Source: an uncultured Fibrobacter sp. (GTDB taxonomy: Bacteria > Fibrobacterota > Fibrobacteria > Fibrobacterales > Fibrobacteraceae). From it: DNA of 64,000 bases. Shown here piece after piece: positions 14,425-42,283 of this stretch; the first letter of the stretch is position 1, and the number at the start of each line of letters is the position of its first letter. Under the pieces are notes generated by a model. The model was given only the letters and a program-made list of their open reading frames with translations, searched no databases and was not told the DNA's origin. The stretch covers positions 31,652-95,651 of the forward strand of contig NZ_CAMGVQ010000003.1 in NCBI RefSeq assembly GCF_946062555.1. The letters are read 5' to 3'. The translations under genes and the position numbers were made by a program.

Positions 14425-14436
14425 CCCCCCCCCCCC
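14425..14436. repeat. Homopolymeric C12 tract in the non-coding region upstream of the zinc-ribbon operon
   Basis: tttaCCCCCCCCCCCCgtgt ends 94 nt upstream of the ATG at 14530. Confidence 0.95.
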
Positions 14437-14529: not shown

Positions 14530-16152
14530 ATGTATTGTGAAAACTGTGGTGCAAAAATACCTTCTGGTGCAAATTTTTGCGAAGAATGTGGCGCAAAGAT
14601 TGATTATGCCGATGGTTTAACCGAGGAGTCGACACCTAAAGGTGGAACCTCAAAATCATTTGGCATTCTAGAGCCTGATGTTTTTGATAACTCGGATTGG
14701 AAGTCCAAATGGCTTGCTGCCGCACAAAAGGCTAGTGGATTGGAATTGGGGATCATCCTTACCGATGTTAGTACCCTTTCAAGGGATTTGAATTGTTCCG
14801 CTTTGCAACTTAAGGAACTGATTGCGAATTATATTGATGCGGCACATCAGCGTGATGTCCATTATTACCTTCTGGATGTTGCCGAAAACAGTGTGCAAAA
14901 TGCGGACGGTACCGATGTGCAATCGGTGGTGGACTTGCTCAAGACGGTATGCGATGTGGCTCGACCCAAATACTTGTTTATCCTTGGCAACGAAGAAGTC
15001 GTCGCAGTGGCGTCATGGGATAACCAGGCGAGTGATGATGACTATGACGTTCTTGCGGATCTGCCCTACGTAACCCTTGATACGACTTCGCCGTGGGAAG
15101 GTCAAAAATATAACTTTGGACAAGTTCTTAGGGTTGGGCGACTTCCCAGTTTCGACGGCGAACGGCTCGATGAGTTCGAGACCTACTTCGGCAACGCCAT
15201 TCGCGGTATCGGCAGGATTGACGAGGTTCGTCCGTTTGGACTTTCCGCCCTTGTGTGGAAGGATGCTTCGCAATCGCAATACGCCGGTATCGCTTCCGAA
15301 AATGTCTACACTTCACCGGAATTGTCTCTCGACAATGTGGATGAAGAGCTCCCATCGGATGCCAATCTTCTGTATTTCAACCTGCATGGCCGCGATTCTG
15401 CCAAATTCTGGTACGGACAGGAGGGTATGACCTACCCCGAGACTTTCGCGCCCGGTATGCTTGAAAACTTGACTGGACCTTATTTCTTGGGTGTCGAGGC
15501 TTGCTATGGTGCACGCTACACCGAAGGTCTCACTCCCGAAACAAGTGTCCTTTTGTCGGCCATGTTGCATGGGTGTTTGGCCTTCTTGGGTTCAAGCAAG
15601 ATAGCCTTTGGCCCTTGTGTTGCTCCGGGGAACTGTGCCGACATCATGATTGGAACCTATGTAAAAAAATTGGCTAACGGCGAAAGCGCGGGCGATGCCT
15701 ACTGTGCTGCCATGAAAGACTTGATGAACGATGAAAACCCTGACGATTTGACCATCAAAACGCTCGCTGAATTCTCGCTTTACGGAGACCCTTCTGCCCG
15801 TATGGGAAAGAACAAGTCCAAGTCTGTTTTGGCCAAGGCGTTCGGTGGTGTCGCGAAGGGATTGCGTGTGCCTATGCCGGATGTGCGGCGGGCTGTAAAA
15901 TCTATGCAGATTGATGCGAGCAGCAAGGCTGTTCAGGCATTCCAGAGGAAGCTTTCTACGAACATGAAGGCGTTCAGCACGGGGTTCAACATCATGGATT
16001 ACATGCAGGGTGTAGAACCTAACTATTTTCAGGTGGGTAGCAAGAACCTGTTCCAGGCTTCTTATACAAAAACTATTGGAAAATTTACACAAATTGCTAA
16101 GGTCTATTTTGACGACAATGGCAAGATCAAGAAAACTCTCCTTTCCAAGTGA
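14530..16152 (+). CDS. Zinc-ribbon protein fused to a clan-CD (peptidase C25/gingipain-like) domain
   Basis: An AGAGGAG RBS lies 9 nt before the ATG. The N-terminus is MYCENCGAKIPSGANFCEECGAKI. The order of C25-like landmarks is LFILGNEEVV...DLPY...VGRLP...LYFNLHGRDS (His-Gly)...GVEACYGA (Cys)...AFLGSS...FSLYGDPS. Confidence 0.55.
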   Translation: MYCENCGAKIPSGANFCEECGAKIDYADGLTEESTPKGGTSKSFGILEPDVFDNSDWKSKWLAAAQKASGLELGIILTDVSTLSRDLNCSALQLKELIANYIDAAHQRDVHYYLLDVAENSVQNADGTDVQSVVDLLKTVCDVARPKYLFILGNEEVVAVASWDNQASDDDYDVLADLPYVTLDTTSPWEGQKYNFGQVLRVGRLPSFDGERLDEFETYFGNAIRGIGRIDEVRPFGLSALVWKDASQSQYAGIASENVYTSPELSLDNVDEELPSDANLLYFNLHGRDSAKFWYGQEGMTYPETFAPGMLENLTGPYFLGVEACYGARYTEGLTPETSVLLSAMLHGCLAFLGSSKIAFGPCVAPGNCADIMIGTYVKKLANGESAGDAYCAAMKDLMNDENPDDLTIKTLAEFSLYGDPSARMGKNKSKSVLAKAFGGVAKGLRVPMPDVRRAVKSMQIDASSKAVQAFQRKLSTNMKAFSTGFNIMDYMQGVEPNYFQVGSKNLFQASYTKTIGKFTQIAKVYFDDNGKIKKTLLSK

Positions 16153-16160
16153 GGCAAAAG

Positions 16161-16430
16161 ATGGAATTCGGAAAAATAAATCTTGAAAAGGGAATTGAAA
16201 TGGTTCTGCAGGGGACCATCGTTTTCCTTGTTGCAAATGAAGGCAGCAAAAGCGAAGGTGTTTATCCTCACCTGTATCAGGATCGTGAAACGAAAATCAA
16301 AGTTTTCAAAGAAGGTGACAATCCATTCGAAAATCACGGTTTCGATGATTTCGATGGAAAGCAGGTTGAGTTGAAAGGTTCCCTTGGACGCGGCAATATA
16401 TTTGTCGTCAAGGAAATCAAGGCTATTTAA
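16161..16430 (+). CDS. Small hypothetical protein (~89 aa) in the zinc-ribbon operon
   Basis: The ORF starts 9 nt after the upstream stop. The composition looks beta-rich. I recognised no family. Confidence 0.45.
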   Translation: MEFGKINLEKGIEMVLQGTIVFLVANEGSKSEGVYPHLYQDRETKIKVFKEGDNPFENHGFDDFDGKQVELKGSLGRGNIFVVKEIKAI

Positions 16431-16453
16431 AATTACAACAAAGAAGTACATAT

Positions 16454-19054
16454 ATGAAATGTTTTGATTGCGGAAAAGAACTGAGGGATGGAGCCAAATT
16501 CTGCTCTGGTTGCGGAAAAGCACAACCGATCGCACAGTCGGCTCCAGCACCGGCAGCAGGCGGAGTTACATGCCCTAAGTGCGGCAATGTCATTACTACA
16601 GGCAAGCCGTTCTGCTCCAAGTGTGGAACCAAGCTGGGAGATGCACCCGCCCCAGAAACTGCCAAGAAAGATTTCTCGCTCCTTGGTTCTTATATCCATT
16701 GGAACATTCTAGATGGCCAGATTGCGGTCAAGATTGACGAAAACGACATTGCCGCCTATGGCAAGGTGAAGGGCCTGAACATTCAGGATGGCGTCAAGGC
16801 CTTGTTCTTTGCCGAAGGAAAGTTCATTGCCGAACTCGGTGGTGGAAGCTACACCTTCAAGGAACTGGGTTCCGATACCATATCTAAGCCGGAACCGCCT
16901 AAGCCAAAGCCGCAACCGGTGGCCAAGGCCCCGGAACCAAAAAAGAAAAGTTTTTTCGGTTTTGTCAGCAACCTTGTGGGTCACCTTACCGGTCATAATC
17001 GTGAACGTGCGCAGGCCGCAGGTTTGACCTCTAGGGTTAGCGCCGATGTGCCGTCGGTATCTATTGTGCTTGTCCGCGATGTAAAGTTCCCGTTGCTGTT
17101 CGACTTTAAGGGAATCAACACCGCCTCGCTCCAGAGCGATGTCGCCCTCCACCTTCTGTGCAAGGTCGTGAACATCAACGAATTCTACAAGAACCAGCTG
17201 CTGGACAAGAAGTTCGTCTGTTATGATGAATTCTCCAAGCAGCTGAACCCGCTAGTGCAAAAGGTGCTGAACAACGCCCTTGCCGGAGTGCGAGCCGACG
17301 AGGTTGCAGGCAATACGGTGCTTTATGCCAATGTGCTTGCCATGTTGAAAACCGTCGTTGCTCAGGTTTATCCGTTTATCGATGTGACCGATGTTCTTGA
17401 CATGAGCGGCAAGCAAGAAGACCTGGACAAGCTCCGCAAGCTCAAGGAAGAACTCTATGTTTCGGAACTTGAGCTGGAACAGGCCACCAAGCGCAACGCC
17501 TTCTTGAACCGTCTCAAGGACGAATCCAACGCCCAGGCGATGCACGAAGCCCGCACGCAGGTGGACTTTGTAGATGCAATGGCGAAGATTGACCAGCAGA
17601 ACGAGCTGAATCAGTTCGAACGCGAAAAATTCGCACTGATGCTGGCCGGCCAAAAGAAGCTGCACGAGGCCAAGAGTGAATCTGAAATGCAGGCCGCTCT
17701 TCAGGATATCAAAAAGAGCGATATGCTACGCGAAGATGAATTTGAAGCGTTGGAACTAAATATTAAGACGCAAAAGATTCTGCGCGAAGCGAGCTCCGAA
17801 GAAAATGTTCAGGCGACGCTCCAGGAATACAAGAAGAACGGGCTTATTCGCGATGACGAAATAGAGACGCTCGAACACAACATCCGCCAGCGTGCCGATT
17901 TGCGGGATTTGAATGACGAGCAGATCCTTGCGATGGCAACCATCCAAAACGAGCAGGCTCAGGAACGCCAGCGGATGCTCTGGGATTTTGAGGTAGGCAC
18001 AAAGCGCCTCGAAAATGAGTTGCAGTTGCGTCGGATGCAGGATTCTTACGACGACGAACGTCGTGAAAAGGATGCCGCATTTAACGATAGTCGTCGTGAA
18101 GCGGATCTGGATTTCAACACCCGTAGTCGCAAGGCAAACATTGACCTTGATAAAGAAGAACAGCTTTCTCAGCTTGATATCTTGAAGCAGGCACAGGCAA
18201 TTCGCCAAGAGCGCGAAGATACCGAACACCGGCGCCAAGAAGAAGCTTTGGCCTCTGCTCGCCAACACGAAGCCCAAATGACGGGCCTCGACATGCAACG
18301 CGAAGCTCAGGAGCAGAGACACGAAGAGGAAATGCGCCGCATGTTCCAGACTATGTCGGTGGAGCAGATTATGGCGGCAAACCCCGACTTGTCTCCGGCT
18401 GCCGCTGAAGCCATGAAGGCGAAGTATGCTGCCGAAGCTGCTGCCAACGCCGAAAAATACAAGGCCGAGGCCGCCATGGCGCAAAACGGTCAGCTCGAGG
18501 CAAAGAACCAACAGATGTTTGCCATGATGCAGCAGATGATGGCAAGCAAGGATGCAGACCGTTCTGCAGAAATGGAACACATGATGCAGATGTCCGGTAT
18601 GAACAATGCCAATACGCAGCAGATGATGCAGATGTTTGCTCAGATGGGTATGACCGGAATGCAGGCTGCCGCTGGAGCCAATGCCGCAGCAGCCCAGGCA
18701 AAATTGCAAGGCCAGGCAGACTTGACTGCCGCCTACAAGCAGCAGACCGCAGAAACCCGCGTCGATGCCAATGCGGCACAGGATCGTTTTTTGCATGGTA
18801 TGCAGACAACTATCGGTGCCGTAGGCGGTGCCATGCAGCAACCACAGCAGGTTTACATGCAGCAACCCGCAGCAGCTTCCCCGCAGCCGGTTCCACCGCA
18901 GTTCACCCAGGGGCCCGTGCCTCCTCAGGCCCCTGCAGCGCCGGAACAAAAGTCAATGCCGCAGGTGGCCGCTACAGAAAGGCGTTGCCCCCAATGTGGA
19001 GCCGTTCTAGAAGAAGGTGCCGGATTCTGCGATGAGTGCGGTGCAAGCGTTTGA
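16454..19054 (+). CDS. Zinc ribbons plus an SPFH-like (COG4260/YdjI-like) domain, a long coiled coil, a Met/Gln/Ala-rich region and a C-terminal zinc ribbon
   Basis: The N-terminus has CFDCGKELRDGAKFCSGCGK and CPKCGNVITTGKPFCSKCGTKL. It continues WNILDGQIAVKI...IQDGVKALFFAEGKFIAELGGGSYTF...SIVLVRDVKFPLLFDF (SPFH-like). The C-terminus has CPQCGAVLEEGAGFCDECGASV. Confidence 0.55.
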   Translation: MKCFDCGKELRDGAKFCSGCGKAQPIAQSAPAPAAGGVTCPKCGNVITTGKPFCSKCGTKLGDAPAPETAKKDFSLLGSYIHWNILDGQIAVKIDENDIAAYGKVKGLNIQDGVKALFFAEGKFIAELGGGSYTFKELGSDTISKPEPPKPKPQPVAKAPEPKKKSFFGFVSNLVGHLTGHNRERAQAAGLTSRVSADVPSVSIVLVRDVKFPLLFDFKGINTASLQSDVALHLLCKVVNINEFYKNQLLDKKFVCYDEFSKQLNPLVQKVLNNALAGVRADEVAGNTVLYANVLAMLKTVVAQVYPFIDVTDVLDMSGKQEDLDKLRKLKEELYVSELELEQATKRNAFLNRLKDESNAQAMHEARTQVDFVDAMAKIDQQNELNQFEREKFALMLAGQKKLHEAKSESEMQAALQDIKKSDMLREDEFEALELNIKTQKILREASSEENVQATLQEYKKNGLIRDDEIETLEHNIRQRADLRDLNDEQILAMATIQNEQAQERQRMLWDFEVGTKRLENELQLRRMQDSYDDERREKDAAFNDSRREADLDFNTRSRKANIDLDKEEQLSQLDILKQAQAIRQEREDTEHRRQEEALASARQHEAQMTGLDMQREAQEQRHEEEMRRMFQTMSVEQIMAANPDLSPAAAEAMKAKYAAEAAANAEKYKAEAAMAQNGQLEAKNQQMFAMMQQMMASKDADRSAEMEHMMQMSGMNNANTQQMMQMFAQMGMTGMQAAAGANAAAAQAKLQGQADLTAAYKQQTAETRVDANAAQDRFLHGMQTTIGAVGGAMQQPQQVYMQQPAAASPQPVPPQFTQGPVPPQAPAAPEQKSMPQVAATERRCPQCGAVLEEGAGFCDECGASV

Positions 19055-19071
19055 TTTTTAATGGAGAAAAT

Positions 19072-20664
19072 ATGTCAAAGTGCTTAAATTGTGGCAGTGA
19101 AGTAGAAATCGGTGCAAAATTCTGTGCGGAATGTGGAGCTCCCGTTCCAAAGCAGACGGAATCCGAAGGCTTTTCAATAGGTGACAAGAATGTCATTGCA
19201 GGCGATGTGCATAACGTAAAGAACGTTAACACCGTCAACAATGTCTCTAATACCGTTATTGACGAAACAAAGAAGGTCGTGCTTTGTGCCGTTTGCGGAA
19301 AGCATACGGCAAATGTTGATGCCCATCGATGCCCTTCATGTGGGCAGATGGTGTGCGAGACCCACTTCGACGCCCAAAGAAACCTCTGTCGTTCTTGTCT
19401 GGGCGAAATCCACCAGCAGGCAGTAAGCAAGTATCGTGCGCTACTAGCGGAGGTGTATGCCGATGGCAAGATTACCGCCGACGAACGTGCCCAACTCGAA
19501 ACGATGCAAAAGAACCTTGGCATTAATGCCGAAGAGGCTGCCGCCTTGGAAAAAGAATTCCACAGGCAGAACCTTAACCTGACGGTGTCGGAAAAGGTCG
19601 CCATGGAAGATGCTGCGGCCTTGCTTTTGCAGAATAATATCGATGATGCATATCTGAAGGTTTCGAGGATTTACCTGAATCACCCGAAAGAAGAAATAGT
19701 GTTGTCGCTTTATCTGCGGATTCTTAAGCGCTACGATCCCAAAGAAGCGCTAAAAATTATTGACGGCCTGAATGTCGACTTTAGAGAATCCTACCTGGCC
19801 GCCATCGATATCTTTTTACAAGATGGATTGCTGGACGAGGCGGAACGCCGAATCAACATGGCTAAGCAGATTTGGCCGAGTGACCTGCTAATCCGTTGTG
19901 CCGAAATTCGGCACCTTTGCGCCCTGGCCTACAAAACCGGCAAGCCAGAATTGCTGAACGGTGTCGAGGATATTTTTAATTCTATCCCCCAACCGTGCAA
20001 TGATTACGAAAAAGGCGCCCTGCTTTGCGCAAAGGCTATGTTCAATGCGGCAAGCGAAAACTCGTCAGATGCAATCGACAATTTGCAGACATCGCCTTAT
20101 TGGGTTGAAACAGCTAAGGACTTGTTCGCCCTTTCTCCCGAAGAGCGCGAGCGGCTTGAACGGGAACGCCTTGAAAAGGAACGGCTTGAACGTCTTGAAC
20201 AGGAGCGACTTGAAAAAGAGCGCACTGAACGGGAGCGCGAAGAACAGGAACGCAAACGCCAGGAAGAGGAACGGCTTAAACAAGAAAAAGCTGAGGCCGA
20301 AGAGCGGGAGCTGCGAGAACGTGAAAGAGCACTCCAAGAAAAGAAAGCCAAGATGGAAGAACAGCGCCGGGCCCTGGAAATCGAAAATCGGCTACGTAGC
20401 GAAAGAGAAAAACAGGATCTCATGACCGAGCTTTTGCGGCAAAGAACGCCCGAAGCCAATACCAGTAGCAAGAACAAAATGGTGGCATTGATGTTGTCAG
20501 TATTTTTAGGATGGATTGGTATTGACAGGTTCTATTTGGGCTACGCCGGTTCTGGCATTGCCAAAATGTGCACTTTTGGCGGACTGGGAATCTGGTGGCT
20601 CATTGATATTCTGCTCATTGCTGCAGGTTCCTTAAAGCCTAGTGATGGAAATTGGTCAAATTAA
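19072..20664 (+). CDS. Zinc ribbon, a second Cys cluster, a helical/TPR-like region, a highly charged ERLE coiled coil and a C-terminal TM2 membrane domain
   Basis: A GGAG RBS precedes the start. Contains CLNCGSEVEIGAKFCAECGAPV, then CAVCGK...CPSCGQMVCETH...CRSC, then a YADGKITADERAQLETMQKNLGI (TerB/DjlA-like) motif. The C-terminus ALMLSVFLGWIGIDRFYLGYAGSGIAKMCTFGGLGIWWLIDILLIAAG matches the TM2 pattern. Confidence 0.65.
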   Translation: MSKCLNCGSEVEIGAKFCAECGAPVPKQTESEGFSIGDKNVIAGDVHNVKNVNTVNNVSNTVIDETKKVVLCAVCGKHTANVDAHRCPSCGQMVCETHFDAQRNLCRSCLGEIHQQAVSKYRALLAEVYADGKITADERAQLETMQKNLGINAEEAAALEKEFHRQNLNLTVSEKVAMEDAAALLLQNNIDDAYLKVSRIYLNHPKEEIVLSLYLRILKRYDPKEALKIIDGLNVDFRESYLAAIDIFLQDGLLDEAERRINMAKQIWPSDLLIRCAEIRHLCALAYKTGKPELLNGVEDIFNSIPQPCNDYEKGALLCAKAMFNAASENSSDAIDNLQTSPYWVETAKDLFALSPEERERLERERLEKERLERLEQERLEKERTEREREEQERKRQEEERLKQEKAEAEERELRERERALQEKKAKMEEQRRALEIENRLRSEREKQDLMTELLRQRTPEANTSSKNKMVALMLSVFLGWIGIDRFYLGYAGSGIAKMCTFGGLGIWWLIDILLIAAGSLKPSDGNWSN

Positions 20665-20690
20665 TTAACAAAAAAATTATGGAGCACAAT

Positions 20691-21434
20691 ATGACTGACG
20701 AAGTAAAGAAAAGGATTCTCGCCGAAGAAGAGGCTTTGCTTAAGCAAGAAGAGGCTCTTTTGAAGCAGCAGGAACTGGAATTGAGAAAAACTCAAGAACT
20801 TAAGGACCAGGCTCGCTTGGAGCGTGAGCGAATTCTTGAGCAACAAAAAGCCGAAAAAATGGAAAAGGCAAAAAAAAGAAAAAAAAAGTGGATAATAGGA
20901 TTGGCAATATTCTTTGGCCTAGGTATTATCGGTCAGTTCATGCCGGATAAACATTCGGCGGCCCATGCAGATTTTGAAAAGAATCGTGAAGCCCTGCAAA
21001 AGGAGCTGAGTGAAATGCAGAAAAAGATTCAGGGCTCTGTCAAGGCGATGAATCTGGAATCTGTAGATATCGAAGATCGCGGTGGATTATTGATTCTTTC
21101 TCTCAAGGATAACTTGTTCGCAGTCGGCTCTGCCGATGTAGGGACAGACCTGAAAATTAATCTTGCAAAGATTGCAGGTATCCTCCTGTCTAACAAAGAT
21201 GTAAACATTGATGTCCAAGGACACACCGACAATACCGGCGATTCCACGATGAACCAGAAGCTTTCGGAGCTGAGAGCCATGAATGTGGTGTCGGTTCTCG
21301 TTGAACAGGGTGTCGACAAAAACCGCCTGACATTTAGGGGTCTTGGGCAGACTCAGCCGATAGCAGACAACTCAACAGAAGACGGTCGCAAAAAGAACCG
21401 TCGTGTTGATTTGGTGATTGTTGATAAAAAATAA
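20691..21434 (+). CDS. Coiled coil, TM segment and OmpA/MotB-like peptidoglycan-binding domain
   Basis: A GGAG RBS lies 7 nt before the ATG at 20691. TM segment WIIGLAIFFGLGIIGQF. The C-terminus has DVQGHTDNTGDSTMNQKLSELRAMNVVSVLVEQGV...NRRVDLVIV. Confidence 0.7.
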   Translation: MTDEVKKRILAEEEALLKQEEALLKQQELELRKTQELKDQARLERERILEQQKAEKMEKAKKRKKKWIIGLAIFFGLGIIGQFMPDKHSAAHADFEKNREALQKELSEMQKKIQGSVKAMNLESVDIEDRGGLLILSLKDNLFAVGSADVGTDLKINLAKIAGILLSNKDVNIDVQGHTDNTGDSTMNQKLSELRAMNVVSVLVEQGVDKNRLTFRGLGQTQPIADNSTEDGRKKNRRVDLVIVDKK

Positions 21435-21453: not shown

Positions 21454-21531
21454 AATTATTACCGTGAATGTGGAACCTAGTTAGAACCTGGTGACACATT
21501 CTGCGGTAATTGCGGCGCTAAAATCAAATAA
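21454..21531 (+). pseudogene. Relic zinc-ribbon mini-ORF with an in-frame stop
   Basis: Reads NYYRECGT*LEPGDTFCGNCGAKIK*. It follows the same C..CG-x9-FC..CG pattern as the operon proteins, but the first Cys is Tyr and a TAG lies at 21478-21480. Confidence 0.5.
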
Positions 21532-21551: not shown

Positions 21552-23753
21552 ATGACAAAATCTCAACATAATGACGAGAAAAAGCTCTTTACCAAGTCGG
21601 CGTTTAAGATTGCGACACACTGTCCGATGCAAGCTTACTACTACCGTAATCCTGATGACTATGAAAACCAGTCCGCGACGGACGAGTTCCTGAAATCCAT
21701 GGCCGAGGGTGGTTTCCAGGTCGGCGAACTGGCGAAAATCTATGGCGAGGTTCCGCCGGAGAACGACCTGGAGGGCTGTTTTGGTTACGACGAGCCCATT
21801 AAGCGTACCCGCGAACTCTTCGAGCAGGAAAATGTGAATATTGCAGAAGCCGCGTTCCGTTGCGGAGACTGCTTTGTCCGCGCCGACGTGGTGAAGAAGA
21901 AGGGCGATTTTATTGACCTGATAGAGGTAAAGGCGAAAAGTTGGGACCCGAATAATCCATTTGTGAATACGCCGACTAGAGGGGCCAATGCCGGAAAGAA
22001 TGTCGTGAATTCAGGAATTCGCGACTACCTCTACGATGTAGCCTTCCAAAAGTGGGTTGTCGAGAATGCACTGAAGATTGATTACCCTAACAAGACGTTT
22101 ACAGTGCGCGCCTACCTGATGATGGCGGACAAGAGTAAGGTGAATACTATCCCGCGACTGAACAGCCTTTTCCGCATCAAGAAGAGCGTGGGGAGCGATG
22201 GCGAAAAACGCGCCCATGCCGAGGTCGCGCCCGAAGCCATCGAGATACTGAAGAATCCACACGAGCAAGTCCTGACACCATTCTATGTCGATGACGAATG
22301 CAAATTGATTATCGAAGGCAAGACTGCCGAACAGGCGGATGTGTTGGGCATGCCATTCGTCCCGTTTATTGAAGAAAAATCAAAGTGGTTCGTGAACAAC
22401 GAGAAGCATTATTGCCTTCTGGGCAGCAAATGTTTCAAGTGCCCCTTCCAGCTTTCGGAAGAAGGCAAGGCCAAGGACTTGAAAAGCGGTTACGAGGAAT
22501 GCTGGCGCAATACTGCCGGATTCAAGGACGAAGATTTCGAAAAACCGTTGCTTAAGGAATTGAACGGGACCGGTATAAAGAGAGATGACTGGATCCGCGC
22601 AGGAATTTATTTTATAAAGGACGTTACGGAAGCGGTGTATCCCCGCAAAAATGACGGAACGGGAGCAGGGTGGACTATCAATGAACGCAAGTGGGTCCAG
22701 ATTGACAGAACGAATGACGGTAGCAAGGAACCCGTTATCCTGAGAGATGAGCTCCGTGCCGAGATGGCAACGTGGAAGTTCCCGTTTCACATGATTGACT
22801 TCGAGACGACGAACTCCGCTTTGCCCTACTTTGAAAAACAGCGCCCTTATGAACAGGTTGCGTTCCAGTTCTCGCACCACGTAATTTATGAGGACGGCCG
22901 CATTGAGCACAAGGGACAGTTCCTAGAAACCCGCCCGGGATATTTCCCGAACTTTGACTTTGTCCGTGAGTTGAGAGACCAACTGGGGGAAGACGAAGGT
23001 TCGGTGTTCCGCTATTCGCCTCACGAAAACAACATATTGAATGCGATTCGCGAACAACTTATTGCGTCAAAGGAACCTGACAAAGCCGAACTGGTTGAGT
23101 TTATCGAAAGTATTACGCATCGGGGCAAGAAGAAAAAAGACGGCCATTACGAACACGAAGGCGAGCGCGACATGATTGACCTCTGCGAAATCGTCAAGCG
23201 GTTTTACTGGCACCCGATTATGAAGGGCTCGAATTCTATCAAGCAGGTGTTGCCCGCCGTGCTCAACAGCGGAACCTACTTGCAGGAAAAATACGGCAAG
23301 CCCATATACGGTAGCGAAATCAAGAGCTGCAACTATACGGCGGAATCTCCGCTTACGCTGATTGTCAAGAACGAATCCGGCGAAGTCCAGAACCCGTACA
23401 AGGCATTACCGCAGCTTAAAGAAATCCAGGACGAACTCATCGGGGAAATCGCTGCGCAGGGCCTCTGGAGCAAGGAGGAACTGGAGCAATACGCGCAAAG
23501 CGCATCTGCCGACGAGATGGACGCCGATGAGGATACCCGTATCAACAATGGCGGCCTACCGCTGGTACTGTTCCGCAGCTTCCAGGCGCTTGACCCGAGC
23601 GTGGACTGGGAAAAAGCTATTACAGCGGCGAACCCGTCCGCGGATGCCATCAAGTACAATGCACTCCGCAAAGGCCTGCTCAAGTACTGCGAACTCGACA
23701 CCATGTCCATGGTGCTAATCTGGGAATATTTTAACAACGCCGTAAACGGCTAA
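21552..23753 (+). CDS. DUF2779-type protein: an N-terminal PD-(D/E)XK-like nuclease fold plus a central DEDD-like IDFET motif
   Basis: Contains FVRADVVKKKGDFIDLIEVKAKS (D...ExK) and FPFHMIDFETTNSALPYFEKQRPYEQVAFQFSHH, which is typical of DUF2779 as I remember it. Confidence 0.55.
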   Translation: MTKSQHNDEKKLFTKSAFKIATHCPMQAYYYRNPDDYENQSATDEFLKSMAEGGFQVGELAKIYGEVPPENDLEGCFGYDEPIKRTRELFEQENVNIAEAAFRCGDCFVRADVVKKKGDFIDLIEVKAKSWDPNNPFVNTPTRGANAGKNVVNSGIRDYLYDVAFQKWVVENALKIDYPNKTFTVRAYLMMADKSKVNTIPRLNSLFRIKKSVGSDGEKRAHAEVAPEAIEILKNPHEQVLTPFYVDDECKLIIEGKTAEQADVLGMPFVPFIEEKSKWFVNNEKHYCLLGSKCFKCPFQLSEEGKAKDLKSGYEECWRNTAGFKDEDFEKPLLKELNGTGIKRDDWIRAGIYFIKDVTEAVYPRKNDGTGAGWTINERKWVQIDRTNDGSKEPVILRDELRAEMATWKFPFHMIDFETTNSALPYFEKQRPYEQVAFQFSHHVIYEDGRIEHKGQFLETRPGYFPNFDFVRELRDQLGEDEGSVFRYSPHENNILNAIREQLIASKEPDKAELVEFIESITHRGKKKKDGHYEHEGERDMIDLCEIVKRFYWHPIMKGSNSIKQVLPAVLNSGTYLQEKYGKPIYGSEIKSCNYTAESPLTLIVKNESGEVQNPYKALPQLKEIQDELIGEIAAQGLWSKEELEQYAQSASADEMDADEDTRINNGGLPLVLFRSFQALDPSVDWEKAITAANPSADAIKYNALRKGLLKYCELDTMSMVLIWEYFNNAVNG

Positions 23754-23793: not shown

Positions 23794-25540
23794 ATGGAAG
23801 AAAATAAGGAACCTTCTTTGGAAGAAAAATTAATACAGATATACGAAACATTAGAAGATAAAAGTAAATGTACTTGGTGGTCTGAAAAGAGTGAGTGGGA
23901 AGACGTCGAAGATGAGATTAAAAATAATTTAATCGATTTCAAGGACAAATGGTTGGATGACAAATATCTTTTGAAGGAAAAGGCTTTTGCTGAAATAAAA
24001 AATTATTATAAAGATCTGCCAAACTCTATTGAAAAAATCCCTATTGGTAGTGCTGGCTTAAAAGGTTTGCAAATTGGTTTTTACTTCGGGAATGATAATA
24101 CGTTGACGGATGAAACCATAAAAAATAAATTTGAAACAGTTTGTGCGGCGAAAAGAACTGTGTTAAATAGTTGCCTAAATGCAGGTACATCCGCAGATCT
24201 TTCTAAAAAGAATGATTTTTCTGCTTGGGCTTTTCTGATGAAACTTTTGGTTTGTGTGAACTATAAAAAAGCCATTGATAAACCAGACAACAATAAATAT
24301 GGCTATTTCTTTTATTATAAAAAAGCTGAGATAACCAAAATGTATAAGCATTTTGTTAACGAAGGCGAAACGGACTTCGTAAAACAAAATGCTGCTATTT
24401 TTAGTAAGGGATGCAAGATACTTTCTAATGCGAATATAACAACGGAACCTAATCCTGAAGGGGATTTAAAAGATGCATTAAAATTATCTGTCGCCCTAGT
24501 TTACTTACTCAAAGCACCTGATTTTGATGAACTTTCTGAAAAATCACCCAATGTTATTTATTATGGTGCGCCAGGTACTGGAAAAACACACGCTGTAAAG
24601 AATATAATTGATTTAGTGTGTCAAGGTGATTCAAACCGTTATGTATGGACACAGTTTCATCCTAACTTTTCCTATGAAGATTTTATTGATGGAATAAAGC
24701 CCGTTGGAATCACCAATGGAAACGTAAAGCTAGAGTTGCTAAATGGTTTATTTAAGGATTTGTGTATTCGTGCAAAAAAATGATATTAAACATGAATACT
24801 ACTTTATTGCTGATGAGATAAACCGAGCCAATCTATCAGCCGTATTTGGAGAAACACTATCGCTGCTAGAGGCGAGTTATCGAGACGATCCTGAAAAAGA
24901 TAATAGGAATAATTTAATAAAGACTCAATATTCAAAAGTTGAATCAAAATTGATTGAGGATAAAATTATTGATGAGAAAAGCGCCTATGAATACGATGAA
25001 GAACAGGGCTCCAGGTTCGGTATTCCTAAAAACATTCGCTTTATAGGCATGATGAATGATGTGGACAAAAGTATTGATGCTTTTGACTTGGCTTTGCGGC
25101 GTCGATTCAAATGGATAAGAAAAGATTGTGATTATAATGTTATTAAAGAAACTGTAAAAGACAAAATAGGCAATATAGACGAGTCATCTCTTGAAAATTA
25201 TATCAAGTCGTGCAAATTGTTGAATAATTTCATTTCTGTAAAGGAAAATGGATTGAAACTCGGAAAGTCCTATGAGTTTGGTCATTCGTTCTTTATGAAA
25301 ATAAGTGACATTGTAGAAAATAACAAAAATGATGACGCTAACAAAATAACAGATAACAATAAAAAGACTTTATTTGATAATTACCTTTCTCCAACTTTAA
25401 AGGAGTATCTGCGAAGTTCTTGTTCAGAAGAAGAAATAGATGCCAAGCATAAAAAGGCTAAAGAAGCGTTTGTAAAAGAGCAAGAGAAACCAGGTGGAAA
25501 AGCTAAACCAATGAATCCTAGCGTCCCACAAGCAACGTAA
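23794..25540 (+). pseudogene. mcrB: McrB-like AAA+ GTPase with an unrecognised N-terminal domain, split by a +1 frameshift in an A7 tract
   Basis: ORF 23794-24783 carries Walker A YYGAPGTGKTH. ORF 24743-25540 carries YYFIADEINRAN and IGMMNDVDKSIDAFDLALRRRF. The two frames meet at gcAAAAAAAtga (24774-24780). Removing one A gives ...LCIRAKNDIKHEYYFIADE. Confidence 0.7.
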
Positions 25541-33514: not shown

Positions 33515-34819
33515 ATGAAACGCATCATCCTTGAAAAACTGAATAAGTGGAAAACATCTAAAAGGCGCAAGCCCCTGCTTTTGCGCGGCGCCCGTCAAGT
33601 GGGCAAGACTTGGGTGTTGAAGGAGTTTGGCAAATCTTTCCCGGACGGTTTTCTCCACATCGATTTTGACAAGCAAATCGAATACAGGCAGTTTTTCGAG
33701 CAGACCAAAGACGTAAAGCGCATCCTTGCGAACCTCGCAATGGCGAGCGGAAAAAAGATAACCGAGAACACTCTGATAATCTTTGACGAAATCCAGGCTT
33801 GCGAAAGCGCTTTAAACTCATTGAAGTATTTTTGCGAAGACGCTCCGCGATATAGCGTTGTCGGCGCCGGCTCCCTTTTAGGATTGAAGCTTGCATCCGG
33901 ATTCCCCGTGGGCAAGGTTGAATTTTTGGATATGTATCCCATGACATTCACCGAGTTCTTGCTTGCGAGTGGAGACAAGAACCTTGTTGAATACCTCGAC
34001 ACCATCGAAACACCGGAGAACATTCCGCAGGCATTCATGGGACCGCTAGAAGAAAAATTGAAAACGTACTTTGTGACAGGCGGCATGCCGGAATCTGTAC
34101 TTAACTGGGTCGAAGATCAAGACGTCGCCGCTGTCGACAAGGTTCTTTCTGATATTCTAACAGCTTACGAAGCGGATTTTGCAAAGCATGCGGACAAAAC
34201 CGACGTGCCGAAAATTCAATACATTTGGGATTCGCTACCGTCGCAACTTTCCCGCGAAAACAAGAAGTTCCTGTATTCGGCCGTAAAGCCCGGTGCGCGC
34301 GCCAGGGAATACGAGAACGCCCTGAATTGGCTCAACAACGCGAATCTCGTGAAGAAAGTTTTCCGTTCCACGAAACCGGGCCTCCCGATATCCGCCTACG
34401 ATGACTTGACATCTTTCAAAATATACATGGGCGACGTCGGGCTATTGCGAAAAAAAGCGGGGCTTGCGACTTCGGCATTTGCCGAACAGAACCGCCTATT
34501 TACGGAATTCAAGGGCGCTCTCACCGAAAATTTTGTATTGCAGAATTTGTCGGGGATGTTTGATGTCGCACCGCGCTACTGGAGCGACAACTTCCACGAA
34601 GTCGATTTCATTATCCAAAAAGAAAACACGATTATCCCCATTGAAGCCAAGGCGGGCACAAACATCAAAGCAGCCAGCATCAAGTATTACGACAAACAGT
34701 ACGACGCACCCCTGATGGTGCGATTCTCGATGCGCAACCTCTCCCGCGACGGAAAGATGCTGAACATCCCGCTCTTTATGGCAGATAGACTGGATGGACT
34801 GCTAGAAAAGTGGGGATAG
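33515..34819 (+). CDS. AAA+ ATPase with a DUF4143-type C-terminus, intact
   Basis: Walker A LLLRGARQVGKTW and Walker B TLIIFDEIQ. It is paralogous to 12777-13955 along its length. Confidence 0.75.
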   Translation: MKRIILEKLNKWKTSKRRKPLLLRGARQVGKTWVLKEFGKSFPDGFLHIDFDKQIEYRQFFEQTKDVKRILANLAMASGKKITENTLIIFDEIQACESALNSLKYFCEDAPRYSVVGAGSLLGLKLASGFPVGKVEFLDMYPMTFTEFLLASGDKNLVEYLDTIETPENIPQAFMGPLEEKLKTYFVTGGMPESVLNWVEDQDVAAVDKVLSDILTAYEADFAKHADKTDVPKIQYIWDSLPSQLSRENKKFLYSAVKPGARAREYENALNWLNNANLVKKVFRSTKPGLPISAYDDLTSFKIYMGDVGLLRKKAGLATSAFAEQNRLFTEFKGALTENFVLQNLSGMFDVAPRYWSDNFHEVDFIIQKENTIIPIEAKAGTNIKAASIKYYDKQYDAPLMVRFSMRNLSRDGKMLNIPLFMADRLDGLLEKWG

Positions 34820-35787: not shown

Positions 35788-36153
35788 TTAGATTTCGCCC
35801 TTTGCCTTCTGTTCCTTGAACTTGGCTTTTGCTTCAATCCATTCGTTTATAAGGCGATGGAGTTCCAATGTATCGACCGTTATTTCGTTGGGAGTCCCTT
35901 CAGGCGCGAAGTTGTCCACGATAAGTGTTTCCTTCGGGCCAATATCCCAGCAGCAATCGTTGCCGGAACATTCAACATGTTTCTTCTTTTTGGAGAGAAC
36001 CTGGTCGATTTGTTCAAGAATGATTGAGGGGAATTCTTCAACATCAGAGGCAAAAAAGGTTGTGAACACATTAGGGCCTTCGTCAAAAACGAAATTCAGC
36101 GTTTTTGTTCCGTCTTCGAGCGTCGTATAATCAATTTTGTAATTATAATTCAT
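35788..36153 (-). CDS. Putative immunity protein for the upstream EndoU toxin
   Basis: A 121-aa acidic protein. Its ATG overlaps the toxin stop by 1 nt (TGATG at 36153). Confidence 0.5.
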   Translation of the reverse strand: MNYNYKIDYTTLEDGTKTLNFVFDEGPNVFTTFFASDVEEFPSIILEQIDQVLSKKKKHVECSGNDCCWDIGPKETLIVDNFAPEGTPNEITVDTLELHRLINEWIEAKAKFKEQKAKGEI

Positions 36154-36803
36154 CAGTTTTCCTCCATCAAGGGATATACGTTAACAATTTTTCCGTTGGC
36201 ATTAACACGCATTCGTATACGGACTCCTTCAGAAGATGAACCTTCATACATATTGAGTGTGTTTGTTTTGAGCCGCTTGTTTGCGTACGCCTCGTTTATC
36301 GCATTCACGATATGTTGCGGCGACCAGTGTTCGGGGAAGAATGTAGACATTCCGCCCATTGTGCGCTTTCGGATGCCGTTGACCGTTACCCTGCCTTGAT
36401 ATACTCCTTTTTCATTCAGTTCTGATTTTGTACCGGGGATAATTCGACCTTCCGCATTCCTAATCACTTCGGTGTGGTAACCGGTCGCCTCGAGTCGTGT
36501 TTTCCCTTTACCTGCTGAAGCTGTCTTTACCTCACCATTAAATATATGTTTTATCAGGTTCGGTTCAAAGAGCTCCGTATGTTCCAAAGCTTCCAAATCA
36601 CCCTTGAGGTATTTTAGTGGAGGATTGTCCAGATTTTCTGTCCGGTAAAGTTCCGGACGATTCTGTTTCGCGGGTCCCTCTTCAGGAAAAAGCGTTGTTT
36701 GGATATACTTTTGCGGGAGTTCATTCAGCAAATGCTGATACTCCTTTGGTAATTCCGGTAGTTTGTAAACACCCCCCGGCTGGGTTGAGGCTTTAAGGCC
36801 CAT
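36153..36803 (-). CDS. Stand-alone bacterial EndoU-type RNase toxin domain protein
   Basis: An AAGGAG RBS precedes the start. Contains IKHIFNGEV...GKTRLEATGYHTE...GGMSTFFPEHWSPQHIVNAINEAY...GKIVNVYP, the EndoU_bacteria pattern. No N-terminal delivery domain is present. Confidence 0.6.
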   Translation of the reverse strand: MGLKASTQPGGVYKLPELPKEYQHLLNELPQKYIQTTLFPEEGPAKQNRPELYRTENLDNPPLKYLKGDLEALEHTELFEPNLIKHIFNGEVKTASAGKGKTRLEATGYHTEVIRNAEGRIIPGTKSELNEKGVYQGRVTVNGIRKRTMGGMSTFFPEHWSPQHIVNAINEAYANKRLKTNTLNMYEGSSSEGVRIRMRVNANGKIVNVYPLMEEN

Positions 36804-37238: not shown

Positions 37239-40193
37239 CTACAGTCCTTCAACGATTGCTTGCAGGTTTTCCTGTTTGAGTTGCTTTTTGAAGCGAACCT
37301 TCACGCCTTCGTTTTCCAAATTTTCAAAGAACACTTTGGCAGATTCTATTTTGAGCTTCTCGCCACCGCGCAGATCTTTGTCGGCATTCTCAACATCCTT
37401 GCATTCTACAATGAGATTCAATTCGTTTTTGTCTTTACGACGAACGATATACATAAAGTCGGGACTGTAAGTTTCTCCCAAAATAGTCGGAATGCGCACG
37501 GTACTTTTCGGAATTTTTCCGAAGACTTCAACGCCTTCTACATCGTTCAGAATGTCGTCCTTCTCTAACGGAGAATCATAAGCGATACTATCGTAGAGAT
37601 ATTTTTTAGGAACTTCGCCCACATCCATAAATTTACCGACAAGTCCCAAGGTGATAAACTCTTCGGAACTGCCGTCAGTCTTGTTGAGGCTTGTTTTCTT
37701 GATGCGGGAGCGACTTACCTTTTGATATGTGAAACGACCCATCAGTTTTTCAAGTTTCCAACGATGGATTTCCGCACAAATATTTGCAAGGCTGCGTTCG
37801 TTGAACATTGGTTTTCCGCCATCTTGAACGAATTTGCATATTGCCTGGTGCATTGCTACAACGGGAACAGATTCTTTTTGCTGAATTCTCTGCAGGAATT
37901 TTCCGTAGTCAATTTTTCGTTCCACTTCATAACTGTTGCCACTAGAATCGTGCACTGTTGCAACGCCATTTTGCGTAGTAACTTTTTGACGAACGCTTTG
38001 CACAACCGTTTTTGCAAAAAGATCCTGCTTGATAAGGATTGGCAAGGCTTTCTCCAACTCGTCATTCAATTTGTCATCAAATGTGAGTAGGTAATGCTCG
38101 TTCATCTTAAGCCAAAGAGTCTTCAACTGGTTATAGCGATCGCTTCGAATTCTGATTTTATCGCCGCCTTTTTTCTTATTACGGTCAATAATTTTGCGAC
38201 CTGTATCACGGACCTTAAACAACTCGGGGTATTCGTCTGCAAATTCGTTGGTTTTTTCTGGATTTACAGGGTGTCCCGGCATATCCCCTTTGCGCATTTT
38301 GATGAACTTTTTCCCAAGGAGTTCCATAAGCCGGTCTTCCGCCTCGATTCCTATCTTTTGGGCGAATTCTTCAATTTGGGCGTCAGTGATGAACATCATT
38401 TCTTCGCGTTCGCCGTTGATTTCTGCGACAAGCTTGTCGGCAAATTCCTTTTCGGTATAGTCAACGATATAGTTAAGCGTGAATTCTTCATCGGTAATAC
38501 GTTTTCCAAATTCATTTACGGGGAGACGAAGTCCACGCCCCACTTCTTGCAACTTGCTGATTTCAGAACCGCTACTACGGAGTTTCGCTATCGTGAATAC
38601 ATTCGGATTATCCCAGCCCTCCTTGAGTGTCCACTTGGAAAAAATGAATCTTCTCAAGTTATCCATTGAAAGCAACTTTTTCTTGTCGTGTAGGATTTCT
38701 GAAATCTCTTGAGCAACGGATTCTTCGCTGCTTGAGTTGTCCTGCGCAAAGTAGCCGCCATGTGTTGCGGAAATATCGGCAAGAGATTTTTGCAGATATT
38801 CACGATATGGGTCTTTTTCTTTTAAACCTTCAATTTTTTTATTGATTTCTGCTTTCAAGATTTTTTCAAACGACCGACGCAAAGCGCCATTTTCATTTCG
38901 ATAGGCAGAAATGTCATCAATAAAGAAGAGTGCAAGTGTCTTTATCTTGTCTTCGCGATTGAAATTCTGTTCTTCGGTCTCCAAATGTCGACGAATTGCC
39001 ATCCGCATCATGGCTTCTTGGTAAGCTGTGGCGTACATATCGGGCGTAAGGGTACCGCCAACCTTTAATACCACGCCATTTGAAAGACGAATTTCTTTCT
39101 TGTCAAAATCTTCTATGACAAGGTTTCCGAAGTTTTCATGAATTTCGGAAAGAGGTATCCCAAGAGCCAATGTCTTTCGATGTGATTTGCCAAGGGCATC
39201 TTCCCATGTGAATCTTGTTTCGCAGTTATCCTTGTCTATTTTGGTAATTTCAGCAACCTTGACCTTGATGTTTTCGGCATCCTTTAGCGGATTGATATGT
39301 TCCTTTGCGATTCCCTTGATAAGATTCTTATTGAAGGATTCGTACGCATCCAGATTATAAACTAGATTCTTGTAATCCTTGACAACAGTCTTCTCTTTTC
39401 CTCTGCCGACTGTCGTTTCGGGGAATGTCGCCCCAAAACGAATCAACATTTGCGGACAAAGATTCATGATGGCGTCCATTGCCTTGTTCCCGTCAGAAAA
39501 ACGGTGCGGTTCATCGATAATGACAATGGGGCGAGTTGCCTTCAATGCTTCCAAAGGGCAATAAAAATTGTCTATGCCGTAATCAAAATCGTCATTTTTA
39601 TAATTGGAATTGGTGAGCAACGCACTATTGAGCAGCAGTACCGAAATATATCGTTCAGATTCTCCAGGATTTTGGTAAAAGCCTGAAACAGCAGAAGGGA
39701 AAAGTTTCTTTTTCTTGTTGCCTTTTTGCTCCGTTCCTTCAAACAGACGAATTTCTGCGCCATACCCACATGTGTCGCGAAAGTGCCTGCGCACATCGGG
39801 ATCTTCAATGAAGTTTTTTGCTCCAGCCTTGATTGCCTTTCCAGGAACAATCAGGATGAATTTTGAAACGCCCAACTGTTTGTGCAATTCGTGGATGGTT
39901 TCGGTATAGACGTATGTCTTACCAGTGCCGGTTTCCATCTTGACATCAATGTAAAGGCATGGTTTGGGAGCGACACCCACGGCTTTTTGCGCCGGGGTAA
40001 AACCTTTCATATTGAGTTGAAAGTCTTTTTGAATTTTGCCTAATTCCGCCTGAATTTTTGAGTCGTTTGGATAGATATCGCAGTTGGCGAAATGATTGAG
40101 CGAATGCTCTGCATGCAAAGTCCCAGTCAAAGCAAGAATTCTTTCAATTGCTTCGCGTTGATGCGGCAGGTTTTGTTCAAATTGAAATTCCAT
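37239..40193 (-). CDS. res: Type III restriction enzyme Res subunit (SF2 helicase plus C-terminal PD-ExK nuclease)
   Basis: Contains METGTGKTYVY (motif I), VIIDEPHRF (motif II) and the C-terminal YSPDFMY...LIVECKD. A GAGGTG RBS overlaps the mod stop. The start at 40193 (MEFQFEQ) is preferred over the ORF opening at 40238. Confidence 0.85.
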   Translation of the reverse strand: MEFQFEQNLPHQREAIERILALTGTLHAEHSLNHFANCDIYPNDSKIQAELGKIQKDFQLNMKGFTPAQKAVGVAPKPCLYIDVKMETGTGKTYVYTETIHELHKQLGVSKFILIVPGKAIKAGAKNFIEDPDVRRHFRDTCGYGAEIRLFEGTEQKGNKKKKLFPSAVSGFYQNPGESERYISVLLLNSALLTNSNYKNDDFDYGIDNFYCPLEALKATRPIVIIDEPHRFSDGNKAMDAIMNLCPQMLIRFGATFPETTVGRGKEKTVVKDYKNLVYNLDAYESFNKNLIKGIAKEHINPLKDAENIKVKVAEITKIDKDNCETRFTWEDALGKSHRKTLALGIPLSEIHENFGNLVIEDFDKKEIRLSNGVVLKVGGTLTPDMYATAYQEAMMRMAIRRHLETEEQNFNREDKIKTLALFFIDDISAYRNENGALRRSFEKILKAEINKKIEGLKEKDPYREYLQKSLADISATHGGYFAQDNSSSEESVAQEISEILHDKKKLLSMDNLRRFIFSKWTLKEGWDNPNVFTIAKLRSSGSEISKLQEVGRGLRLPVNEFGKRITDEEFTLNYIVDYTEKEFADKLVAEINGEREEMMFITDAQIEEFAQKIGIEAEDRLMELLGKKFIKMRKGDMPGHPVNPEKTNEFADEYPELFKVRDTGRKIIDRNKKKGGDKIRIRSDRYNQLKTLWLKMNEHYLLTFDDKLNDELEKALPILIKQDLFAKTVVQSVRQKVTTQNGVATVHDSSGNSYEVERKIDYGKFLQRIQQKESVPVVAMHQAICKFVQDGGKPMFNERSLANICAEIHRWKLEKLMGRFTYQKVSRSRIKKTSLNKTDGSSEEFITLGLVGKFMDVGEVPKKYLYDSIAYDSPLEKDDILNDVEGVEVFGKIPKSTVRIPTILGETYSPDFMYIVRRKDKNELNLIVECKDVENADKDLRGGEKLKIESAKVFFENLENEGVKVRFKKQLKQENLQAIVEGL

Positions 40194-40200
40194 AAACACC

Positions 40201-42225: not shown

Positions 42226-42283
42226 AACGGCTCCTTGAATAAACATTCACGAATCCGCTCTATTCCGTGCCACGATTTCCACA

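Follow-up and report, generated by a model that had tools for sequence, protein, structure and literature searches.

A zinc-ribbon cassette that joins a predicted gingipain-like protease to an SPFH-fold protein in Fibrobacter and other bacteria

Why would a bacterium place one type of zinc ribbon on a protease, on a scaffold protein and on a membrane anchor, and encode all of them side by side? This question is raised by an operon of an uncultured Fibrobacter sp., located at positions 14,530 to 21,434 of a 64,000-nucleotide (nt) stretch of contig NZ_CAMGVQ010000003.1 (the window, meaning the whole stretch that was analysed). Its five genes are called here g1 to g5 in the order in which they stand. 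Our sequence comparisons and structure models indicate that the protease g1, the small protein g2, the SPFH protein g3 and the zinc-ribbon protein g4 make up an unnamed four-gene cassette, and that the OmpA gene g5 stands outside this core. The best-supported reading of the cassette is a clan-CD protease that sits on an SPFH scaffold, is coupled through zinc ribbons and gated by an inhibitor, and works with a swappable adaptor or sensor; this mechanism is what we infer from the parts.

An earlier note on this DNA had described a compact five-gene operon on one strand, and this layout is reproduced here: all five genes are co-directional and the gaps between them measure 8, 23, 17 and 14 nt (the last one 26 nt if g5 begins at its alternative start). 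The ATG of g1 has a GGAG 9 nt upstream and is preceded by an intergenic region of 570 nt. No convincing internal terminator was found in the operon, and a scan for promoter and terminator consensus sequences did no better than one of shuffled sequence.

Is this a unit or a chance neighbourhood? Loci were gathered by gene-neighbourhood look-ups and by a scan for exact peptide patterns with one genome per species, and the scan gave 29 loci among 185,579 species genomes, which is a patchy distribution. The core genes g1, g2 and g3 and a g4-like gene stand side by side in about 30 independent loci of seven or more phyla: Fibrobacterota (Fibrobacter), Spirochaetota (Treponema/Spirochaetaceae), Lentisphaerota/Verrucomicrobiota (Lentisphaeria/Victivallales and Verrucomicrobiaceae), Bacteroidota (Bacteroidales/Rikenellaceae), Clostridia, Calditrichota (Calditrichaceae) and Marinimicrobia (Neomarinimicrobiota). 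Profile searches of all open reading frames (ORFs) placed homologues of g1, g2 and g3 next to each other in essentially every locus with enough sequence, and a g4-like gene in nearly all of them, in three gene orders (g1-g2-g3-g4, g4-g3-g1-g2 and g2-g1-g3-g4). All-against-all clustering of the locus ORFs revealed no other conserved neighbour of g1, PspA, ESCRT, NfeD and FtsH included. The comparison of neighbourhoods proposed in the earlier note thus shows that homologues of g1 to g4 co-occur across about 30 loci and seven phyla; the five-gene unit described there holds for these four genes, whereas the TM2 domain proved to be one of several ends of g4 and the OmpA gene an addition of the lineage. 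The g1 family itself counts 493 representatives (clusters at 50% identity) at E<=1e-30 among 1.84 billion proteins, and the sources name them only 'zinc ribbon domain-containing protein' or 'hypothetical protein'. One would argue that the neighbourhood is fortuitous and that unrelated genes share a promiscuous domain: Zn_Ribbon_1 and DZR are indeed very common, and at E<=1e-3 the g1 profile picks up 8269 representatives, in many cases probably via the ribbon alone. However, the four genes are adjacent in seven phyla, in three orders and with tiny gaps, and their ribbons are conserved by position, which leaves this explanation with hardly any credit. Chance juxtaposition of the cassette genes was excluded by the locus profile searches and the clustering.

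What kind of protease is g1? Its AlphaFold2 (AF2) model (predicted local distance difference test, pLDDT, 85.7; predicted template modelling score, pTM, 0.85) finds its best Foldseek matches, over the whole protein and with probability 1.00, in the gingipains RgpB (1cvr, E=1e-11) and Kgp (4rbm, E=1.5e-11) of Porphyromonas gingivalis (MEROPS C25). A second tier is formed by the CHAT proteases Csx29 and SAVED-CHAT (8eey_B, 2e-6; 8tl0_I, 9e-6), followed by separase and, weakly, by caspases. The His-Gly and Ala-Cys motifs of the gingipains are shared as well: FNLHG (H286-G287), VEACYGA (A324-C325), VGRLP and YGDP are invariant or nearly so among 40 aligned homologues, and FNLHG and EACYGA are kept in all 36 of the 36 locus homologues, down to 26% identity. 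In the model His286 and Cys325 stand just behind consecutive strands, which is the clan-CD arrangement. The earlier note had read a clan-CD/C25-like protease from the landmarks HG, AC, VGRLP and YGDPS; the landmarks are conserved among the homologues, and the class of the protease is supported by the gingipain-like fold together with the invariant His-Gly and Ala-Cys. The likeness is fainter in sequence: Peptidase_C25 (PF01364) reaches 21.5-21.9 bits on g1 (E=1.2-1.6e-4), below the cut-off of 23, the sequence yields nothing useful in the PDB, the g1 profile meets only zinc ribbons such as ArnA there, and neither NCBIfam nor PADLOC has a match. Many g1 homologues carry a precomputed PF01364 match, and distant relatives on plasmids are annotated as C25 family cysteine peptidases.

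Gingipains are secreted and possess a pro-domain and a C-terminal domain of the type IX secretion system (T9SS). In contrast, g1 starts with a ribbon at residue 2, and neither a hydrophobic segment nor a signal peptide was found in it. Therefore it should reside in the cytoplasm, unlike the secreted gingipains, and we regard g1 as a predicted cytoplasmic gingipain-like clan-CD (C25-like) cysteine protease with a putative His/Cys dyad. It shares with the CHAT defence proteases (Craspase TPR-CHAT/Csx29, SAVED-CHAT) the character of a cytoplasmic clan-CD enzyme; those are switchable effectors paired with TPR-type modules. However, CRISPR, CBASS and nucleotide-signal components are absent here, the fold is closer to that of gingipains, and an SPFH partner is unprecedented in those systems. 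A comparison of g1 with phage genomes gave no homologue.

How could such a protease be kept silent? The invariant acidic residues D171, D177 and E323 of g1 appear compatible with a preference for a basic P1 residue. The protein itself ends in Ser-Lys in 31 of 36 homologues and in Ser/Tyr-Arg in another two, and such a basic C-terminal residue would mimic the cleavage product of a Lys/Arg-specific protease. Gingipain pro-domains inhibit via an Arg or Lys placed in S1, and by analogy with them we propose that g2 may be a trans pseudo-substrate inhibitor of g1. We regard g2 as the obligate small partner of the protease, and a homologue of it sits beside g1 in nearly all loci whose sequence extends far enough; g2 matched nothing in Pfam, NCBIfam or PADLOC, and its profile gave only chance-level matches in the PDB. 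Covariation of the C-terminal Lys/Arg of g1 with the Lys of g2 was considered and rejected, as the latter is invariant. The pair also exists outside the cassette: on plasmid NZ_CP088289 of Bradyrhizobium septentrionale (locus L046, 6866-8639) the gene of a C25-family peptidase without a ribbon (g1 profile, E=3e-35) precedes that of an 87-amino-acid (aa) GSKSE protein (g2 profile, E=1.3e-7), and upstream of the two stand an AbiEi/AbiEii pair and a serine protease. This dyad has neither ribbons nor an SPFH protein with it; therefore the protease-g2 pair is older and wider than the cassette.

The AF2 model of g3 (residues 66-400, pLDDT 72.9, long helices from residue ~339) has only SPFH proteins among its top 30 Foldseek matches in the PDB, namely prohibitin, HflK/C, erlin, stomatin, flotillin and QmcA (best E=1.1e-6). 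Pfam Band_7 (PF01145) found no match in g3 at E<=5, the isolated middle domain included, and weakly matches 4 of 36 relatives (best 4.5e-6). The YdjI-family model Band_7_1 was not among the matches of g3 or of any of the 36 family members, the g3 sequence found nothing useful in the PDB, and no match came from NCBIfam or PADLOC. Because the Pfam search with the middle domain was empty, the SPFH assignment, which the earlier note had also made, rests on the predicted fold and on the weak Band_7 matches of relatives. Thus we take g3 to be a predicted SPFH-fold protein with zinc ribbons at both ends and a long helical region. The coiled coil of ~400 aa claimed for it earlier is a charged helix over ~320 aa, followed by ~160 aa rich in Met, Gln and Ala; Met and Gln together make up to 36% per 50 aa there (residues ~641-800), and the consensus NAxMQQMMQM is conserved across the family. 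The domain names of the earlier note fared unevenly in profile searches: TM2 and OmpA exceeded their cut-offs and Zn_Ribbon_1 matched, whereas Peptidase_C25 stayed below and Band_7 gave no match on g3. Together with the structure models, all five of its assignments nevertheless held up.

In the HflK/C-FtsH and stomatin/QmcA-NfeD (YbbJ) pairs an SPFH oligomer is encoded together with a protease and regulates it, and the g3 model matches the subunits of 7vhq, 9cz2, 7wi3 and 8z5g. It could be, then, that the cassette serves envelope stress and membrane-protein quality control: an SPFH patch would gate a protease for the trimming of damaged or mislocalised proteins near the membrane, analogously to HflK/C-FtsH, stomatin/QmcA-NfeD and PspA-YdjGHI, with TPR or LRR adaptors picking the substrates. 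We hold this role for possible, though doubtful. The matches of the g3 fold to the HflK/C-FtsH and QmcA-YbbJ complexes argue for it; on the other hand, no PspA, FtsH or NfeD partner is conserved nearby. The cassette also differs from these pairs in its parts, as the partner is a cytoplasmic caspase-fold cysteine protease, whereas theirs are an AAA+ metalloprotease or a ClpP-like serine protease, and a Kyte-Doolittle scan of g3 found no hydrophobic segment for a transmembrane (TM) or hairpin anchor. Coupling would have to go through the ribbons.

The ribbons are indeed confined to the operon. A six-frame scan of the whole window for C..CG-x7-11-[FYA]C..CG returned exactly five matches, all within the operon: one at the N-terminus of g1, two at the N-terminus of g3 and one at its C-terminus, and one at the N-terminus of g4. 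Pfam Zn_Ribbon_1 matches g1, three stretches of g3 and g4, and DZR also matches the N-terminal pair of g3. A sixth copy, which the earlier note had counted as decayed, is without the first of its Cys residues and is interrupted by an in-frame stop; therefore it can be called a true relic beside five intact ribbons, the leftover 5' end of another ribbon-bearing gene. In the syntenic contigs L042, L043 and L044 the stretch from the OmpA gene to DUF2779 showed no such relic. An intact gene coding for a ribbon, DUF285 and a beta-helix was observed after McrC in L044 (12666-15707), which fits with the remnant of a ribbon that precedes DUF2779 in the window.

The net charge of the ribbons is specific to their position and is kept across orthologues from several phyla (Table 1). 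The ribbons of the operon belong to one family and yet are not interchangeable. Their charges suggest heterotypic pairing of acidic with basic ribbons, membrane binding by the basic pair, or both, and this basic pair of g3 occupies the site where SPFH proteins usually carry their membrane anchor.

In Bacillus subtilis the ribbon-bearing SPFH protein YdjI works with the ribbon-bearing membrane partner YdjG (PMC8581546, PMC11237479). The earlier note had named this pspA-ydjGHI (samGHI) operon as the precedent, and it is the nearest neighbour that we found: it combines an SPFH protein with a C-terminal ribbon and a partner with two N-terminal ribbons (YdjG), and recruits to the membrane through partner proteins (PMC8581546, PMC11237479). 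As a membrane-stress system (PMC8581546; bioRxiv 10.64898/2026.02.06.704340) it also lends weight to the envelope-stress role. However, the gene tables of the loci contain neither PspA nor the TPM-domain protein YdjH, g3 has ribbons at both ends and no Band_7_1 among its matches, and the cassette adds a clan-CD protease, g2 and an adaptor that has a binuclear zinc finger and varies at its C-terminus. A YdjG-type partner (two ribbons, an NTF2-like domain and a TM segment) was not among the conserved neighbours, g1 to g4 being the only genes conserved around the locus. A protein made up of SPFH, coiled coil and ribbon is also encoded by the archaeal Meth_adaptin ESCRT loci (PMC10936438). Their context is unrelated: they contain Vps4/ESCRT-III and adaptin-appendage proteins, which were not found here, and lack a clan-CD protease. 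Literature searches found no description of an SPFH plus clan-CD protease or zinc-ribbon system of such make-up, and since PADLOC and NCBIfam gave no match to the system either, the view of the earlier note that no described system fits is sustained.

What is swapped in the adaptor? The N-terminal module of g4, consisting of the ribbon, the GDKNVIAGD motif and a C2-C2-CH-C2 cluster that we read as a binuclear zinc finger, is conserved in 30 g4-like proteins. Their C-termini differ by lineage: TM2 here, elsewhere LRR_5, beta-helix, DUF285, FGE-sulfatase or multi-TM blocks, and a TPR/Sel1 end in about 9 of the 30, which are the ~910-aa proteins of the Bacteroidota loci. Several loci contain two or more g4-like genes. 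NCBIfam has no match for g2, g3 or g4; residues 109-183 of g4 (75 aa) match the PADLOC candidate PDC-S48 (E=5.8e-7), and TerB is matched weakly. The TM2 domain was recognised by Pfam PF05154 (E=6.8e-20, 71.5 bits versus a cut-off of 27.9), with a GIDRF motif and a hydrophobic segment, and contains the sequence GWIGIDRFYLGY.

From this variability one may think of client processing or sorting: the protease would cleave off the ribbon and zinc-finger module and thereby mature or release LRR, beta-helix, DUF285 or TPR proteins, in loose analogy to the C25-family sortase PorU. Indeed, the g4-like proteins continue behind their shared N-terminal module with unrelated large domains that are common in surface proteins, several loci hold two or more of their genes, and the protease is of the C25 type. 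Nevertheless, signal peptides are absent and the ribbons stand right at the N-terminus. TM segments, in those proteins that have any, are C-terminal, and the repeats are thus placed in the cytoplasm; moreover, the SPFH protein and g2 would have no role. Thus it is not likely that client processing is the function.

The OmpA-like protein g5 matches Pfam OmpA (PF00691) with E=8e-22 (77.8 bits versus 27.2), whereas the NCBIfam OmpA/MotB models all remain below their cut-offs; as no equivalog cut-off is reached, g5 is not MotB, Pal or YiaD proper. It matches the PADLOC ZorB models only via its OmpA domain, and no ZorA is present. We describe it as a predicted OmpA-like protein of MotB topology. 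The TM2 domain of g4 and the OmpA/MotB-like nature of g5, both assigned in the earlier note, are thus secured by Pfam scores above threshold. Because the OmpA gene is tied to the TM2-type block in Fibrobacter-type contigs, where it follows a TM2-type g4 in synteny (L042 and L044), g5 should be a lineage-specific addition and not part of the core. An ER/K-type helix with 62-70% D/E/K/R directly precedes the TM2 domain of g4, and a charged helix directly precedes the TM segment of g5; they are plausible sub-membrane spacers or pairing elements.

Taken in sequence, the parts allow the following mechanism to be drawn. The SPFH protein g3 would oligomerise under the inner membrane as other SPFH proteins do, with its basic N-terminal ribbons in place of a TM or hairpin anchor, and ribbons would couple the protease, through its acidic ribbon, and the adaptor to this scaffold. 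The small protein g2 would keep the protease latent, perhaps by offering its invariant Lys to an acidic S1 pocket, until a perturbation sensed by the adaptor releases proteolysis. In the Fibrobacter operon the adaptor would be tied to membrane and peptidoglycan via TM2 and OmpA; elsewhere it would read its signal through TPR, LRR, Sel1, beta-helix or FGE-sulfatase modules.

Which perturbation could this be? A conflict or abortive-infection-type switch is the role towards which we lean, at somewhat less than even chances, ahead of the envelope-stress role as a close second. The more specific picture of a membrane immune or cell-death switch, in which an SPFH cage holds the protease via ribbons, with a pseudo-substrate inhibitor of ~85 aa and interchangeable sensors, and infection or a breach of the envelope releases it, is a tentative one that we would sooner doubt than assert. 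The patchy spread over several phyla, the adaptors that vary and are sometimes duplicated, the island contexts in Fibrobacter, the employment of caspase-fold enzymes by defence systems, and Csx29 and SAVED-CHAT among the next-best matches of g1 (alongside separase) point to conflict. The variable adaptors carry repeat/FGS modules of the sensor type known from conflict systems (PMC7159879). For an envelope-stress role, the variable and duplicated adaptors and a distribution that resembles horizontal gene transfer are harder to accommodate.

In the window the region of 11.3-43.4 kilobases (kb) is rich in defence genes: a dGTPase, two DUF4143 ATPases, DUF2779, McrBC, EndoU, a type III restriction-modification (R-M) system and PDDEXK_2. 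Of the two DUF4143 ATPases, the one that precedes the operon matches the PADLOC candidate PDC-S01; it and the dGTPase upstream, as well as DUF2779-McrBC downstream, are syntenic in diverged contigs. An eight-gene block of g1, g2, g3, TM2-type g4, OmpA, DUF2779, McrB and McrC is also found in diverged Fibrobacter-type contigs, with g4 relatives at 53-81% identity. In four Fibrobacter-type loci defence genes lie inside or beside the cassette, which has at least two chromosomal sites within Fibrobacter; both facts speak against a role in envelope stress.

Several findings, however, weigh against a conflict role. The loci of Lentisphaeria and of metagenomes lie among glycoside hydrolases, carbohydrate-active and housekeeping genes, and most loci outside Fibrobacter lie outside recognisable defence islands. 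A general link to defence islands was rejected, as 142 flanking proteins of 29 loci gave only scattered PADLOC matches, so that the defence-rich island noted earlier is confirmed for the window but not across the phyla. PADLOC-DB v2 has no match for g1 to g3, only for the PDC-S48 stretch of g4 and the generic OmpA domain of g5. Finally, SPFH, TM2 and OmpA are typical parts of envelope homeostasis, and the TM2 and MotB-type OmpA anchors of the Fibrobacter lineage favour the envelope-stress role.

Some observations concern the surroundings of the cassette. A homopolymer of 12 C, the sole C/G run of at least 8 in the window, lies ~93 nt upstream of the g1 start; contigs of the same species from other samples have 12 C (L036) and 11 C (L037), and L038 diverges exactly there. 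The tract could serve as a promoter spacer subject to phase variation, or reflect assembly noise at a homopolymer. The gene of the DUF2779 protein and then McrBC follow directly after the OmpA gene on the same strand, an order that holds in three diverged contigs, and the co-directional block may therefore be eight genes long. McrB is split into overlapping ORFs of 329 aa and 265 aa, and L042 and L044 have single genes of 565 aa and 532 aa; a frameshift or pseudogene is probable. The GC content of this stretch, 0.34-0.39, is much below that of the operon. In a UWB12-like Fibrobacter (L041, 14129-15241) an AbiH gene is situated between g3 and a g4-like ribbon-DUF285 gene. Loci of the UWB12 and UWB16 types share one chromosomal site (SurA ... 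ABC-F) but differ in the genes inserted there, in the manner of a hotspot.

Table 1. Features of the operon and its surroundings in the window (numbering from the first letter of the 64,000-nt stretch)
Feature	Position	Strand	Description
Poly-C tract	14425-14436		12 C
g1	14530-16152	+	540 aa, ORF; ribbon residues 2-24; disordered linker 27-46; two-subdomain protease ~50-427; alpha/beta domain ~455-540
g1 ribbon	14533-14598	+	mean net charge -1.8 across orthologues
g1 His286 codon	15385-15387	+	FNLHG, predicted catalytic His; invariant 40/40 and 36/36; follows strand 280-284
g1 Cys325 codon	15502-15504	+	VEACYGA, predicted catalytic Cys; invariant 40/40 and 36/36; follows strand 318-322
g1 C-terminus	16147-16152	+	Ser-Lys; basic last residue
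g2	16161-16430	+	89 aa, ORF; GSKSE loop (Lys30 invariant), GDNPFEN motif
g3	16454-19054	+	866 aa, ORF
g3 N-terminal double ribbon	16457-16633	+	residues 2-22 and 39-60; both basic, mean net charge +2.6 (first) and +4.4 (second); Pfam DZR/Zn_Ribbon_1
g3 SPFH-fold domain (predicted)	16679-17413	+	residues ~76-320; disordered, partly hydrophobic insert ~141-196
g3 charged helical (coiled-coil-like) region	17414-18373	+	residues ~321-640; 28-48% charged residues per 50 aa
g3 Met/Gln/Ala-rich low-complexity region	18374-18853	+	residues ~641-800; then Pro-rich linker and C-terminal ribbon
g3 C-terminal ribbon	18983-19051	+	Zn_Ribbon_1 at residues 845-865; mean net charge -2.8
g4	19072-20664	+	530 aa, ORF
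g4 N-terminal part	within 19072-20664	+	ribbon residues 3-25; GDKNVIAGD motif; C2-C2-CH-C2 cluster, read as binuclear zinc finger, 72-109
g4 ribbon	19078-19146	+	mean net charge +1.0, near neutral
g4 remainder	within 19072-20664	+	TerB-like/helical region; ER/K-type helix 355-450; TM2 466-513
g4 ER/K-type helix	20134-20421	+	residues 355-450
g4 TM2 domain	20467-20610	+	Pfam PF05154; GIDRF motif
g5	20679 (alternative start 20691)-21434	+	251/247 aa, ORF; charged helix 1-70; TM 71-89; OmpA-like peptidoglycan-binding domain 146-241
g5 charged helix	20679-20888	+	residues 1-70
Decayed zinc-ribbon relic	21457-21531	+	translation 'YYRECGT*LEPGDTFCGNCGAKIK*'
DUF2779 protein	21552-23753	+	733 aa
McrB, split	23794-25540		two overlapping ORFs
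Second DUF4143/AAA_14 ATPase	33515-34819
EndoU nuclease	36153-36803	-
Type III R-M, res	37239-40238	-
Type III R-M, mod	40201-42246	-
PDDEXK_2	42683-43435

In bacterial immunity, caspase-fold proteases are increasingly recognised as effectors, and SPFH cages are coming to be seen as regulators of membrane proteases; we found no described system in which a caspase-fold protease and an SPFH protein are joined. Gut and rumen bacteria from at least seven phyla share the conserved cassette (~500 representative sequences at E<=1e-30), which offers parts that can be tested: the predicted catalytic Cys, the invariant Lys of the partner, the charge-complementary ribbons and the swappable adaptors. As a defence or cell-death switch, it would represent a new architecture for gating a protease at the membrane; as a stress or quality-control module, it would extend the SPFH-protease paradigm to cysteine proteases and would give a very common orphan zinc-ribbon module a function.

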